From the NCBI GenBank assembly GCA_052327205.1, contig CM126214.1, forward strand, positions 177,878,001 to 177,942,000: a DNA stretch of 64,000 bases. The letters run 5' to 3'. The notes below the pieces were generated by a model. It had not been told where the DNA came from. It was given only the letters and a program-made list of their open reading frames with translations, and did no database searches. Made by a program: the position numbers and the translations under genes. This DNA is from Somniosus microcephalus. Taxonomy: Eukaryota. Numbering within the stretch: the first letter of the stretch is position 1; every line of letters starts with the position of its first letter. Shown here in pieces: positions 6,506 through 64,000 of the stretch.

Positions 6506-6914
6506 GCAAAAGCAGAATACTGCGGATGCTGGAAATCTGAAACAAAAACAGAAAATGCTGGAAATACTCAGCAGGTCAGGCAGCATCTGCGGAGAGAGAA
6601 ACAGAGTTAACGTTCCAGGTCGATGACACTTCGTCAGAACTGGAAAAAGTTGGAGATGTAACAGATTTTTAAGCAAGTGTAGGGGCAGGGAGAGGCGGGA
6701 GGGGAGGAGAGGAAAGAACAAAAGGGAAGGTCTGTGATAGGGTGGAAGGCAGGAGAGATTAAGAGACAAAAGGGATGATGGTGCGAGGCAAAAGGAGCTG
6801 GTAAAGGAACAAGTTAAGAAACAAAAGATGACTCTAGATGAAGTGTAAATGGCACTGGCAGGATGATCAACGGCTGCCATGTGAAAGAGAGAGAAAAAAA
6901 TTATAGGGGCAGAG
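6506..6914 (-). mobile_element. Penelope-like 3'-end fragment; hammerhead core mutated (GGAAC)
   Basis: same 3' module as 61258-61360; 13-bp TSD with one mismatch, GTCAATA(T/C)CTCTT at 6493-6505 and 6915-6927. Confidence 0.85.
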
Positions 6915-14734: not shown

Positions 14735-15014
14735 AAAGCGAAATACTGTGGATGCTGGAAATCTGAAATAAAGACAAAAAAATGCTGGAAATATTCAGCC
14801 GGTCAGGCAGCATCTGAGGAGAGAGAAACAAAGTTAACGTTTCAGGTCGATGACCTTTCATCAGAACTCGAAAAAGTTAGAGATTTAACAGGTTTTATGC
14901 AAATACAGAGGCAAGGAAAGGATGGGGGGAGGAGAGGAAAGAACTAAAGGGAAGGCCTGTGATAGGGTGGGCGGCAGGAGAGATTAAATGACAAAAGGGA
15001 TGATGGTGCGATGC
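14735..15014 (-). mobile_element. Penelope-like 3'-end fragment
   Basis: highly similar to 6506-6790; possible TSD AATACA. Confidence 0.85.
14832..14868 (-). ncRNA. minimal type I hammerhead ribozyme motif with intact core
   Basis: AGUU-CUGAUGA-A-AGGUC(AUC)GACCU-GAAAC-GUU-AACU on the - strand. Confidence 0.72.
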
Positions 15015-35716: not shown

Positions 35717-35753
35717 GGTTCTGACGAAGGGTCATCGACCTGAAACGTTAACT
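35717..35753 (+). ncRNA. minimal type I hammerhead ribozyme motif with intact core
   Basis: GGUU-CUGACGA-A-GGGUC(AUC)GACCU-GAAAC-GUU-AACU; palindromic ACGU stem III as in Penelope minimal hammerheads. Confidence 0.72.
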
Positions 35754-35821
35754 CTATTTCTCTCTCCCCAGATGCTGCCTGACCTGCTGAGTATTTCCAG
35801 CATTTTCTGTTTTTATTTTAT
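35719..35821 (+). mobile_element. 103-bp Penelope-like 3'-end insertion nested in a MITE
   Basis: perfect 13-bp TSD GACTAATTTCAGG (35706-35718, 35822-35834). Confidence 0.88.
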
Positions 35822-58305: not shown

Positions 58306-60864
58306 TGGGGGTCACACCAATGGCGGAGTTCAGGAGACTGACGTGGGCTTTGGCCTCCAGCAGTGCTGCTCTGCAGCCAGATGTTGCGAGACACACAATA
58401 GTGGCTCAGTGATTTATTTCCCAACATCTCTCACTTGCATAGGGTGGTACCTGGCCTCTGCTTCAGTGCCTCCCCACAGCAATATAACTACGATTAGGAA
58501 TTTTGTGTGAGGAGTTGAATTTGTGTTCTTTTATTCATGGTGACTCCACCATATAAGCATTGTTTACTAATATCACAGCTAGGATTTATAATACTACACA
58601 TATGTTAATAAACAACATAGTTTCTTTAGCAAATAACTTTATAAGCCCATTAGGCAATAATTGCTGGCACTGTAACTACAAAAAGCCTAATGCTAAACGG
58701 TTACTACTTTGCGTTAAGGCAAAAGGATGACTGCAAGGTCTGGAATGGTAGTGAATGAACAAAGGTACACACCTTCAGCACCTTTCCCAACTCATGCCGA
58801 GTCACTAAAATGCTTCCCACCTCCTTTGTTATGCCGTGCATTCAGTCACGGAGTCCCTCCCCATATCCCAAAGTTTAAACAGGAAAATAATTGCTCGCTA
58901 TGTCACTAATATGCTTATAAATCTATTTTCTACTAGCCCTCCCCTCAGTAATTTAATAAAACCTGGTTTGGTTTGATTCTGCAGAATTGACAATAACTGG
59001 GAAATTTTACATTGCAGTTTGTTCACTGCAGTGGAATTTAATGAATCAGAGTTGCTCTGAAAGGTATTGTGTCATTAAAGGGGAAAGAAACTCAACATTT
59101 TTACTCAAAGTACTGCTCTACTAACAATTCCAAAAAAATCTGTTAATTAATATCACATAATTTCACACAAACAAAAAATGGCTATTTCTTTGCTTATTCC
59201 TGCTCTCTTTTTTACATGTCCCTCCTTCTTTGTTTTTCTTCTCTTATTTTTGCCTTCTGTGTGCCTCACACAAGTTTTTCTCATTGCAATGTCCGTATCT
59301 TTCTGCTTGTGCCTAACTCTCTCACTCTTGTCAGTCTTTCTGGATGTTCCCTTTAAGCTGTCTCAATGCATGCTGCGGTCATGCACAATCTAATTTTGCA
59401 TAGGGTCCTACGCCTGTTTCAGGCATGTGCCGTGGGTGCCTACAGTGGAGGCTTTACCAATATGGCGGGCGGCACAGAATGTGCGTGTGCACGCCGCCCG
59501 CCATATTGGATCCTTAGACATCCGTTTTACACCTGTAAAATGGGTGCAGGGCAATCCAATTTCTAGGCCATTAAGCGGTAGCTTCTACAACAAACAGCTA
59601 ATCATCACGCACAATTTTCATAAATGTTAAACCTGATGTGCAGCAATTCATCGGGTAGATGGACCAGAAACACTGCTGGACACCCATAATGCTGGTCTCG
59701 GCCCCTTTTACACATTTCTGGTGAGTTTGGGGTTGAAGAAAGCCAAATTCAAGTAACATGGGAGTGATGGAATAACACCTACTGATTCTGATTACTGATT
59801 GTGCTCATGTGAAAGAGTGTAAATATTTCGCATGAAATGGGAAATGGAAAACTGGGTCAAAATCCTGGAACTCCCTCGCTAACAGCACTGTGGGAGCACC
59901 TTCACCACACGGACTGCAGTGGTTCAAGAAGGTGGCTCACCACCTCCTTCTCAAGGGCAATTAGGGATGGGTAATAAATGCCGGCCTTGCCAGCGACGCC
60001 CACATCCCATAAACTAATTTTTAAAAATCAGAAAACTGTTGTTAGCATCTAGACTGGTAGATGCCCTTGAAAGGTGATAAGGGAGTCTAGATTGAGAGGT
60101 ACCCCTGATAGGGGAGATGCCAGTGGTCCTAATGGACATTTTATTCAGTGAAACATTGAACTTCAGTTCATGCCTCAGTATATTTCCATAAGCAAGAAAA
60201 AAAGGAAAATATGCATTTTCTTAATATCTTAGTTGATGGCAAAGTCTCTGCCATGACTGATATTCAGCAATGAGATCAGGTGAAGTAAAATTTGTGGGTG
60301 TTTGTATATTAGCCAAAAAAACATTCTTTGTAGCAACACTCATGACCTTCGCCGTAACAACTGTAACCAGATCACAGCAAGGTCAAATAGATTGAATTAA
60401 AGAGGAACATCCGCTTATTTTTCTTATTGAGGGAAAGACGAGGAAAGAATGAGAAAAGAACTGAAGTCAAACAAAGGTACAGATGCAAGGGAAAGTGTGT
60501 GAGGCATAGAGAGGGAGAGAAAGTATTTGAGAGGAAGAAGAGCAGAGAGACGTTTACAGAAAGACTCTTTTTGTAGGAGAGCAACACCACGGCAGACTAA
60601 CCAGTATGTCTTCATAAAAATGCTCTTTGATTTATTTTTTGATATTAGAACAAAGCACACTCAGCGCATAGCTTATTTTTCTGAGTTGGTGCCATTCTGA
60701 ATCCTATGGGCCCATTACAATCAATAAAGCTGGTCTGGGACATCTCCATGTCAGTGACATCTCAGGAGCGGCCTGGTGGTAATGATAGCAGATCTTCGTC
60801 AGAAGTAAAGCTTTCACTTTTGAAGAAAGAGTAGACGTGTTTTAGTGAAAGTTTGTGGTATGCA

Positions 60865-61124: not shown

Positions 61125-61250
61125 TTACTTTTTAAAATTGTTCTCTTCCTCACCACCTCCTTCCATCTCCGAACTCGGGTCCACCCACATCACCCTCTTC
61201 TGAGGTTGCGATTCTGTAACTGGTTGTTTGGAGATGTGCCGTTTCAGCCC
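61125..61250 (-). pseudogene. OCSTAMP: displaced original C-terminus of OCSTAMP (GLKRHISKQPVTESQPQKRVMWVDPSSEMEGGGEEENNFKK-stop)
   Basis: open and in frame with the upstream exon once the element and one TSD copy are removed. Confidence 0.75.
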
Positions 61251-61257
61251 AGATTCA

Positions 61258-63182
61258 AAATAACAACAGAAAATGCTGGAAAAACTCAGCAAGTCAGGCA
61301 ACATCCGTGGAGAGAAATTTGAGTTGACGTTTCGGGTTTGACCCTTCTTCAAAACTGGAGAGAAAAGGAACTAGATCGAAGGCAGGGCTGCGATCGGACA
61401 AAAGAATAAAAGAACCAAAAGAAGTAAAAGAGATTAGAAGCTAGACGAGATGGTAATAGGCTGTGATTAGGTGTAAAGTGTACTGGCAGGGCAAAAGATA
61501 GCTGCCAGGTGTGAGAGAGAAACAAAAGGAAAGGGGGGGGGGAAAGGAAAGGAGTGGAAAAATATAAGTGAAAATGAAATAGGGGCCGAGGTTATGATCT
61601 GAAATTGTTGAACTCGATATTGAGACCGGAAGGCTGCAGAGTGCCTAATCGGAAGATGAGGTGCTGTTCCTCGAGTTTACGTTGAGCTTCCGTGGAACAG
61701 TACAAGAGGCCAAGGACGGTGAGGTCCGAGTGGGAATGGAGCGGTGAATTGAAATGACAGGCGACCGGAAGCTCGGGGTCACCCTTACGGACTGAACGGA
61801 GGTGTTCCGCAAAGCGGTCACCCAATCTGCGTTTGGTCTCCCCAATGTAGAGGAGACCGCATCGTGAGCAGCGAATACAGTATACTAGATTGCGAGAAGT
61901 ACAAGTAAATCGCTGTTTCACCTGGAAGGGGTGTTTGGGGCCCTGGACAGTGGGGAGGGGGGAGGTATAGGGGCAGGTGTTACATCTCCTCCGCTTGCAC
62001 GGGAAGGTGCCAGGCGAAGGGGAAGGGCTGTTTGGGGTGATAGAGGAGTGGACTAGGGTGTCTCGGAGAGAGCGGTCCCTGCGGAATGCTGAAAGGGGAG
62101 GGGAGGGGAAGATACGTTTGGTGGTGGGATCACTTTGGAGGTAGCGGAAATGCCGGAGGATGATCCGTTGAATGTGGAGGCTGGTGGGGTGAAAGGTGAG
62201 GACAAGGGGAACCCTATCGTGGTTCCGGGAGGGAGGGGCAGGGGTGAGGGCAGAGGTGCGGGAGATAGAACTGACACGGTCGAGGGCAGTGTCAACCACG
62301 GTAGAGGGGAATCCTCGGTTGCGGAAAAAGGAAGACATGTCTGAAGCACTGGTGTGGAAGGTGGCATCGTCGGAGCAGATACGGCGGAGGCGGAGAAACT
62401 GGGAGAATGGAATAGAGTCCTTACAGGAAGCGGGGTGGGAGGAAGTGTAGTCCAGGTAGCTGTGGGAGTCAGTGGGCTTGTAGTAAATATTGGTCGATAA
62501 CCTATCCCCAGAGATGGAGACGGAGAAGTCGAGGAAGGGAAGGGAAGAGTCAGAGATGGACCATGTGAAGGTGAGGGAAGGGTGGAAATTGGAGGCAAAG
62601 TGAATGAAATTGTCAAGTTCGGGGCGAGAGCAGGAAACGGCCCCGATACAGTCATCAATGTATCGGAAAAAGAGGTGAGGGAGGGGACCCGAGTAGGACT
62701 GGAACAAAGATTGTTCCACATAGCCCACAAAAAGGCAGGCATAGCTAGGACCCATGCGGGTACCCATGGCAACACCTTTGATTTGGAGGAAATGAGTGGA
62801 GTTAAAGGAGAAGTTGTTCAATGTGAGAACAAGTTCAGCCAGGCGGAGGAGGGTCGTGGTGGATGGGGACTGGTCGGGCCTCTGTTCGAGGAAGAAGCGG
62901 AGCGCCCTCAGGCCATCCGGGTGGGGGATGGAGGTGTAGAGGGATTGTACGTCCATGGTGAAAAGGAAGCGGTTGGGGCCAGGAAACTGGAAACTGTTAA
63001 AGTGGCGGAGGGCGTCCGAAGAGTCGCGGATGTAGGTGGGAAGAGACTGGACAAGGGGAGAAAAGATAGAGTCAAGATAGGAAGAGATAAGTTCCGTAGG
63101 GCAAGAACAGGCTGAAACGATGGGTCTACCAGGACAGTCCTGTTTGTGGATCTTGGGAAGGAGGTAGAAGCGGGTTGTGCGG
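61258..63182 (-). mobile_element. 5'-truncated Penelope-like retroelement (probably Neptune-type), 1925 bp, 7-bp TSD AGATTCA (61251-61257 and 63183-63189)
   Basis: RT + GIY-YIG ORF, pyrimidine-rich 3'UTR, hammerhead-like 3' end shared with short repeats elsewhere in the window, exact flanking direct repeat. Confidence 0.93.
61322..61356 (-). ncRNA. minimal type I hammerhead motif, variant core (U at position 3), GUC triplet
   Basis: AGUU-UUGAAGA-A-GGGU(CAA)ACCC-GAAAC-GUC-AACU on the - strand. Confidence 0.6.
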
Positions 63183-63304
63183 AGATTCAGTTGCTCTCCC
63201 ACGTCCCCTCCCTTCTTGTGGGGAGGTACTTGCTCCTTGCTCAGCACTTCCTCGCTCCCTGGTACCTCCCCCTGAGGGCCCATCTGAGACAAGGGTCTCT
63301 GCAT
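61592..63304 (-). CDS. 570-aa ORF: host-derived ~41-aa leader plus Penelope reverse transcriptase and GIY-YIG endonuclease
   Basis: FYLLPKIHK, GRPIVS, MDVQSLYTSIP, GVAMGTRMGPSYA, RYIDD, LPFLD, YYKPT, Cys-rich linker CKRRRCNTC, NLVYCIRCSRCGLLYIGET…R…EH, terminal GLN; no stops or frameshifts. Confidence 0.9.
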   Translation of the reverse strand: MQRPLSQMGPQGEVPGSEEVLSKEQVPPHKKGGDVGEQLNLRTTRFYLLPKIHKQDCPGRPIVSACSCPTELISSYLDSIFSPLVQSLPTYIRDSSDALRHFNSFQFPGPNRFLFTMDVQSLYTSIPHPDGLRALRFFLEQRPDQSPSTTTLLRLAELVLTLNNFSFNSTHFLQIKGVAMGTRMGPSYACLFVGYVEQSLFQSYSGPLPHLFFRYIDDCIGAVSCSRPELDNFIHFASNFHPSLTFTWSISDSSLPFLDFSVSISGDRLSTNIYYKPTDSHSYLDYTSSHPASCKDSIPFSQFLRLRRICSDDATFHTSASDMSSFFRNRGFPSTVVDTALDRVSSISRTSALTPAPPSRNHDRVPLVLTFHPTSLHIQRIILRHFRYLQSDPTTKRIFPSPPLSAFRRDRSLRDTLVHSSITPNSPSPSPGTFPCKRRRCNTCPYTSPLPTVQGPKHPFQVKQRFTCTSRNLVYCIRCSRCGLLYIGETKRRLGDRFAEHLRSVRKGDPELPVACHFNSPLHSHSDLTVLGLLYCSTEAQRKLEEQHLIFRLGTLQPSGLNIEFNNFRS

Positions 63305-63680
63305 TACCTCCTTTCACGTATTTCTCTAAAATCTTCTGGTACAAATAACAAATTCTTTCTTCTTCCTGCTTCTGAAAATAAGATGCTGCAATCTTTCTGC
63401 GTATGCGGATCGCATAAGCATCCAACACTGCCATGAGATAAGCAATAATGTACATGCCACTGATAAAAAAAATTACCTGGGTGTCTGGAGGAACTGGCTT
63501 CTTCACACAGTCAGCGGGTACCAGCTTATAATTCCAGGGGAGTTTTTCGTTAACGTTCACGAATTTATCGAATTTGGCATGCTCTGGATTAATGTCGGCA
63601 ACTCCAATTTTCTTTGCAAAATTAATAATTTCAGCTGTAGCTTCCTTCATTTTTTCCATAACCAAGTTATTTGATTGTAT
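63126..63680 (-). CDS. OCSTAMP: last coding exon of an OCSTAMP (DC-STAMP family) gene; the final 18 codons and the stop come from the inserted Penelope element
   Basis: TM helix followed by LDAYAIRIRRKIAASYFQKQEEERICYLYQKIL, matching the OCSTAMP C-terminal motif (AYARRLRxxIAASFFxxQExxRxxxL); strong acceptor tttttctctttcag before 63680, phase 0. Confidence 0.82.
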   Translation of the reverse strand: MQSNNLVMEKMKEATAEIINFAKKIGVADINPEHAKFDKFVNVNEKLPWNYKLVPADCVKKPVPPDTQVIFFISGMYIIAYLMAVLDAYAIRIRRKIAASYFQKQEEERICYLYQKILEKYVKGGNAETLVSDGPSGGGTRERGSAEQGASTSPQEGRGRGRATESPHNPLLPPSQDPQTGLSW

Positions 63681-64000
63681 CTGAAAGAGAAAAATTGAAA
63701 TTCTTTTATAAGCTGCATCTAAATGTGAGTCACTCTATATACATGCAGATTTAAACTTTAGGAGGACCTGGTGGTGGGTGGGAGGTAAGTGCGCTCCAGC
63801 CATACCTGTGTAAAGGCAAATAAATGAGGGTCTTTGTCTCTGCCATATATACAGAGACAGAAAAATAGATGGGGGGGGGGGTCTTTTGAAATCTGTGCTT
63901 TGACAACTACATTTGGGTGTCCCTAGAGGAAGGTGCTGGTGCATTTGCCATGTAATAGAACCATCAAGGTGGGGGAATCTCAGCACTGGGAGGCAAAGCG

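Follow-up and report, generated by a model that had tools for sequence, protein, structure and literature searches.

A young Penelope-like insertion in the last coding exon of a shark OCSTAMP paralog

Within the window, the 64,000-nucleotide stretch of DNA analysed here, a Penelope-like element interrupts the last coding exon of an OCSTAMP-like gene and is predicted to supply the final residues of the encoded protein. The event is a real, young, and well-bounded insertion of a familiar kind into the labile tail of a duplicated gene. With a probability of about two in three, we favour the reading in which the young insertion ends this OCSTAMP paralog 18 residues into the element and is near-neutral and tolerated, with the distal, labile part of the tail lost.

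The insertion, its reality, and its age

The 1,925-bp element lies in the sense orientation of the gene, and both of its ends are abutted by an exact 7-bp pair, TGAATCT on the minus strand (Table 1). The interrupted exon follows an AG acceptor at 63681-63682 and, opening at 63680, reads ...RATES followed by PHNPLLPPSQDPQTGLSW up to a TAG stop at 63126-63128. The 18 codons of the new C-terminal end belong to the element, but the host frame in which they are read is not that of the element ORF. Removal of the element and one TGAATCT copy in silico leaves an open 41-codon tail running to a TAA at 61125-61127. The predicted protein has 532 amino acids with the element and 555 without it, the junction falling after residue 514. 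An earlier note on this DNA had described both the exact duplication and the restored frame; both were confirmed, and the element ends are now set independently by 24 other copies.

Table 1. Features of the gene and the insertion (window positions unless a contig is named)
Feature	Position	Strand	Description
Upstream exon (exon 2), outside the window	G000:C13:177943866-177944909		348 codons, open, GT donor
Retained last coding exon, OCSTAMP-like paralog	63183..63680	-	166 codons; C-terminal DC_STAMP domain, last membrane helix, 53 tail residues
Donor-like site GAG/GTAATG in exon	63302..63307	-	Carcharodon model P0004 exits the exon at the homologous point
5' target-site duplication copy, TGAATCT	63183..63189	-	Boundary set by other element copies
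5'-truncated EN+ Penelope-like element, Neptune-type linker	61258..63182	-	1,925 bp; domain matches and 24 near-identical copies
18 element-derived codons and TAG	63126..63182	-	Read in host frame
Remnant element ORF	61592..63181	-	529 open codons: RT with YIDD, CX4CX2C linker, GIY-YIG with internal CX2C
Minimal hammerhead-like motif, U for core C3	61326..61352	-	Near element 3' end; in predicted 3'UTR
3' target-site duplication copy	61251..61257	-	Exact repeat
Displaced former coding end (reconstructed)	61125..61250	-	41 codons and TAA; only last ~12 residues orthologue-like
First AATAAA 3' of the gene	60631..60636	-	Candidate poly(A) signal; sequence motif

Four public runs were compared at L047:1900-7000 (L047 being numbered as the window minus 59000). 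Two of these, X1 and X2, are samples with two organism labels from one study, and either may be the assembled animal. In each sample, single contigs run across the two junctions and carry 0-1 differences in 282-885 bases, and the junction contigs have depths of 12-14 against 13 and 24-26 against 29 for the neighbouring unique contig. Among the pieces listed, the junction contigs extend into the element by 30 and 23 bases, less than the 31-base rule requires; this counts against the favoured reading and probably reflects how far a contig built from 31-mers can run into a very common repeat. Since an empty allele of equal abundance should break the contigs, homozygosity in X1 and X2 is likelier than a segregating allele, and the earlier description of the insertion as an allele fits these unbroken contigs less well. 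In X4, a third organism differing from the window by 108 differences in 2129 bases (5.1%), one 1095-base contig matches both flanks and skips the element, giving an empty site. X17, a putative RNA run, yielded no coverage of the unique exon bins, a result that speaks neither for nor against expression. The junctions in two samples, together with the empty site in a relative, show a genuine and recent insertion. An assembly artefact could be suspected because the element is a young repeat present in very many copies, but the exact duplication at both ends and the junction contigs of both samples make an artefact scarcely credible, and the earlier claim of a genuine Penelope-like insertion with a target-site duplication stands.

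Setting 3-6 changes per 1,925 bases against half of the X4 divergence would place the insertion in about the last 6-12% of the time since the X4 split (limits 1-27%). The event had previously been called recent partly on the ground that the displaced tail is free of stops. Recency holds, but the identity of the copies (see below) is the real evidence for it; because 2631 of 18252 stretches of 41 codons in the window (14%) are stop-free in any case, the open tail is weak evidence.

The element and its copies

Pfam matches to RVT_1 (E 7.5e-6) and GIY-YIG (E 8e-4), both below the curated cut-offs, fall within one 529-codon frame that carries YIDD at residue 174. Between the RT and EN regions lies a CX2-5CxxC-type linker, CKRRRCNTC (residues 395-403), and, when compared by eye with PMC8557442, the endonuclease region shows the CCHH motif: two cysteines lie between GIY and YIG in LVYCIRCSRCGLLYIGET, after which come EH and CHF. 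The sections of PMC8557442 consulted give a zinc-finger-like CX2-5CxxC linker between RT and EN as a feature of Neptune that is absent in Penelope and Poseidon; Nematis also has a linker motif. Judged by this linker motif rather than by a tree, the element is an EN+ Penelope-like element (PLE) of the Neptune type and not of the Penelope/Poseidon type. It differs from the EN+ PLEs of the Neptune clade in standing alone as a truncated unit that lacks an upstream pseudo-LTR and a tail.

A genome search for the element resulted in at least 1635 candidate places, of which 40 were scored and the best 25, including the window copy, were analysed. The 24 other copies in this set are 99.3-99.7% identical to the window copy. 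All of them end at or just past ...TTGTTATTT; at the other end, 22 match to the same 5' base and then run on into more element, and two start no more than 20 nt from the 5' boundary of the window copy. Because most copies continue 5' of the junction, the window copy is considered 5'-truncated, its 529-codon frame corresponding to the 3' part of a frame of at least 827 codons in copy L026. The intact frames of the best copies say little, as these copies were picked for their similarity. In fetched DNA, flanking duplications of 7-15 bp were present in 12 of the 19 other copies with a locatable 5' end (22 of 380 non-cognate flank pairs reach 7 bp in the control), which puts the 7-bp duplication at the short end of normal. 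The window copy gives a single alignment with no upstream pseudo-LTR, and a second aligned piece is found at 9 of the 24 sister loci; the missing tandem or pseudo-LTR is expected for a truncated insertion and is no bar to EN+ PLE membership. Relative to the column majority of the 25 copies, the window copy differs at six of 1,925 sites, three of which are unique among the 25, with one of these three recurring in all five older copies.

Other repeats were noted nearby. A shorter copy of the element family (96.8% identity over 1,021 bp) is located at G000:C13:177955717-177956736, about 11 kb upstream of the large exon of the gene, and older solo 3' tails of ~100 bp with 76-84% identity to the element lie at window positions 6540-6644, 14766-14871, and 35718-35818. 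On the same contig, a ~4 kb minisatellite array in which several frames are open spans G000:C13:177967442-177971751. A 341-codon open frame at G000:C13:177978015-177979037, among LTR-retrotransposon frames, resembles by eye consecutive Ig domains of an obscurin/titin-type protein and is possibly a captured processed fragment.

The gene, its second paralog, and the exchanged tail

The last exon matches the Pfam family PF07782 (DC_STAMP, E 9e-19). A search with exon 2 retrieved 58 proteins, for the most part under the names OCSTAMP or OCSTAMP-like, and a search with the longer protein added no further orthologue. A tree was calculated from 29 rows, consisting of 26 hand-picked members of the 58 hits, the window gene, and the two DCSTAMP-like exons of the genome as outgroup. 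The OCSTAMP group, which includes the window gene, is separated from the outgroup with 100/100 support. The window gene groups with copies from Mustelus, Scyliorhinus, Stegostoma, Chiloscyllium, and Pristis (87/100), and a second shark clade with 100/100 support is placed weakly (81/69) with tetrapod OCSTAMP. These sequences show that sharks and rays carry two OCSTAMP paralogs. The earlier naming of the gene as OCSTAMP is thus right as to the group, but the window gene is one of two elasmobranch paralogs and is not clearly the orthologue of mammalian OCSTAMP. No discussion of two such paralogs was found among the papers listed on OCSTAMP in sharks (titles and abstract starts).

Relative to mouse OC-STAMP as described in the accessible part of PMC4456411, the window protein is similar in its DC_STAMP domain and multi-pass membrane profile, in its C-terminus, which is cytoplasmic by homology, and in having a single N-glycosylation motif at the homologous place (EDILNSTQ vs ESLLNTT); this motif, at residue 154, is the only N-x-S/T in the protein and corresponds to a conserved glycosylation motif (cf. 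Table 1 of that paper). In contrast, the shark/ray clade of the window gene shares ~40% identity with both the other shark copy and tetrapod OCSTAMP, and it has a longer tail. On the plus strand of the window, positions 18875-41152 contain exons of a p160 nuclear receptor coactivator (PAS_11, NCOA_u2, SRC-1, Nuc_rec_co-act, and DUF1518 domains), likely NCOA3, arranged tail-to-tail with the OCSTAMP-like gene. At G000:C7:214.90-215.16 Mb there are two DCSTAMP-like genes, separated by 250 kb; together with the two OCSTAMP copies, they indicate that both STAMP genes are duplicated in this genome.

The second OCSTAMP paralog lies ~4 Mb from the window gene on the same contig (G000:C13:181991891-182023607). 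Its small first exon and its last exon are 80-84% identical to P0016 (84% for the last exon), and a search of the whole assembly did not recover its large middle exon. A 500-N run (G000:C13:182016232-182016731) falls within the interval of the missing exon, which is explained either by an assembly gap or by real loss. A 13-residue match upstream of this locus (181980380) was rejected as chance, being surrounded by stops and repeat-like DNA and not recovered by the profile.

No stop or frameshift occurs in the 514 retained codons of the window gene, and its end branch (0.18) compares with 0.07-0.53 for its clade-mates. The earlier suggestion that constraint on this gene may be relaxed in a largely boneless lineage therefore finds no sign in the gene as a whole; instead, it is the tail that is labile. 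The portion consulted of one ray study (PMC12404806), which reports resorption-like surfaces but no multinucleated osteoclasts, leaves the idea possible. Two orthologue models of the same paralog, P0004 (Carcharodon) and P0005 (Stegostoma), contain gaps within the large exon; these could conceal stops or frameshifts, and with them decay of the paralog in other sharks, or could be annotation errors.

Identity between the window gene and six orthologues declines along the protein: exon 2 reaches 57-74%, the stretch from there to the end of the conserved motif (residue 461) 50-69%, the 53 tail residues that were kept 43-51%, and displaced residues 515-543 only 14-20% (3-4 of 20-22 aligned). The last 12 displaced residues (...EEENNF) match at 5-8 of 10-12 positions, and the Pristis orthologue is without that end. 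An acidic end of the form E-x-E-x-x-x-EEE-x-N-F/L is kept in five of the six orthologues, suggesting at the sequence level some constraint on the lost motif, and this counts against a near-neutral loss. Compared with the orthologue ends, the 41 displaced residues beat shuffles in four of six cases (0, 1, 5, and 11 of 2000), which identifies the DNA behind the element as the old exon end. The displaced tail has no second copy in the genome searched.

The empty site of X4 differs from this reconstruction. It has two bases where the reconstruction needs seven (five fewer), nine extra bases at 61209-61210, and six fewer near the exon start, leaving X4 out of frame for EEENNF by a net -2, or by -1 if one unlisted single-base gap is exonic. 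With the 13 substitutions of X4 left out, its two insertions would place a stop at codon 14 of the reconstructed frame. Shuffle scores were also used to ask whether the first 20 displaced codons are the ancestral tail in a shifted frame, and they pointed both ways. In the window letters, frame 0 gave 49 of 5000 shuffles and frame +2 gave 362 of 5000, lower being better; with the two listed X4 insertions added, a post hoc comparison that again omits the 13 substitutions, frame +2 gave 39 of 5000 and frame 0 gave 233 of 5000 (SYRIAEA vs SYRTAEA). The orthologue mismatch and the X4 frame together argue that the GLKRH...NFKK tail is not an ancestral conserved unit: residues 515-543 are poorly matched in the orthologues, and only the last 12 resemble them. 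The earlier note had named a lack of this tail in orthologues as grounds for refutation, and this outcome goes part of the way towards it. Of the previously proposed exchange of 41 host residues for 18, the 18 new codons and a predicted C-terminal swap hold up, but the figure of 41 is a reconstruction from which the pre-insertion tail may have differed.

The break falls 53 residues past the conserved motif, and the resulting chimeric tail of 71 amino acids after the motif is longer than that in 26 of the 31 homologues with the motif pattern (the other 27 of 58 lack a pattern match). AlphaFold run on an eight-sequence alignment gave a confident helix at exon residues 65-123, and no secondary structure and pLDDT below 50 at residues 128-184, a range that includes the junction at 166; the tail beyond exon residue 128 is thus predicted by this model to be disordered. 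The single-sequence model (pLDDT 46) was unusable.

With the element in place, the predicted 3'UTR, measured to the AATAAA, is 2,490 nt rather than 489 nt, and none of four poly(A) hexamers was found in the element on the gene strand. The hammerhead-like motif near its 3' end is identical in 24 of the 25 copies. An Rfam scan gave matches at chance level and no hammerhead match, and in a fold of the element 3' end (z +1.3) the hammerhead is not part of the minimum free energy structure. In the part of PMC4209133 consulted, a single minimal hammerhead did not self-cleave in vitro; the motif here is likewise single and carries U in place of core C3, so it is unlikely to cleave the mRNA.

Interpretation and significance

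The consulted text of PMC8557442 describes PLEs as using target-primed reverse transcription, with offset second-strand cleavage producing variable duplications. The present element was likely inserted by this route, and a staggered cut by its GIY-YIG nuclease would have left the 7-bp duplication. The mRNA would then be spliced as in the orthologues and read through the element to the old poly(A) signal. As stop codons in a last exon usually escape junction-dependent decay under the NMD rule, the new stop would leave the transcript exempt, and the insertion would have drifted to homozygosity or fixation. Little harm is likely, since the loss is confined to the distal part of a cytoplasmic tail that is labile and predicted to be disordered. 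In the accessible sections of PMC4456411, the mouse OC-STAMP C-terminus is cytoplasmic and a C-terminal GFP fusion still rescues cell fusion, with a mean cell area below wild type, a result that we count in favour of tolerated tail change. Weighing against near-neutrality are also the fivefold longer, repeat-containing 3'UTR, which could lower mRNA levels, and, with respect to redundancy, the second paralog's missing large exon.

A rival reading is an activity-reducing insertion, in which the element-derived 3'UTR (as a small-RNA target, by its length, or through the hammerhead-like motif) or the loss of the acidic motif turns a dispensable paralog into a hypomorph or early pseudogene. The 3'UTR is indeed extended, the hammerhead-like motif lies in sense orientation, and the gaps in the Carcharodon and Stegostoma models may conceal broken frames. 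We nevertheless regard this as rather unlikely given the intact retained codons, for which the insertion may be too young to show decay, the ordinary branch length, and the in vitro inactivity of a single minimal hammerhead in the consulted part of PMC4209133. A long shot is that the second paralog truly lost its main exon, making the element-rewritten copy, without its acidic end and with a repeat- and ribozyme-bearing 3'UTR, the only complete OCSTAMP of the animal; if so, an active retroelement would have given a shark macrophage-fusion gene a new native end and perhaps reduced its activity. Transcripts might instead leave the exon at the donor-like site at 63307 for another last exon, rendering the element effectively intronic and irrelevant. 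The site is present, and P0004 diverges at the homologous point, but this model is odd and gapped, six further orthologue models continue through the site, and coding-like identity persists up to the junction in the 53 residues that follow the motif, so that such an exit is quite improbable. Adaptive exaptation of the new 18-residue end or the element-derived UTR for a new function appears very unlikely. Apparent homozygosity in two samples and a substitution at 63175, within the new codons and absent from all 29 other copies compared, would fit selection; however, the new end is unlike any orthologue end (299-1357 of 2000 shuffles score as well), and a nominal cluster of two "private" changes in this stretch (p 0.003) dissolved when the change at 63134 was found in all five older copies.

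The favoured, near-neutral reading places the locus among last-exon C-termini supplied by transposable elements, a known category whose function is often doubted according to the text consulted of PMC2203978. The locus resembles these cases in that the element is read out of its own frame, contributes a short new end, and otherwise forms 3'UTR; it differs in its Penelope-like donor, its very young age, and the still readable displaced end. No paper on this locus was found, mostly among titles and abstract starts. The role of OC-STAMP in macrophage and osteoclast fusion is known for mouse only, in the portion of PMC4456411 consulted. The finding would carry greater weight, for the question of what fusion proteins do in animals with little or no osteoclast-type resorption, if the window gene were the only working OCSTAMP of the lineage or if the inserted 3'UTR altered its expression. 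As it stands, the insertion is a clean, datable case in which a coding end in a very large shark genome has been reshaped by a Penelope-like family that is active, and it is usable as a presence/absence marker among close relatives.
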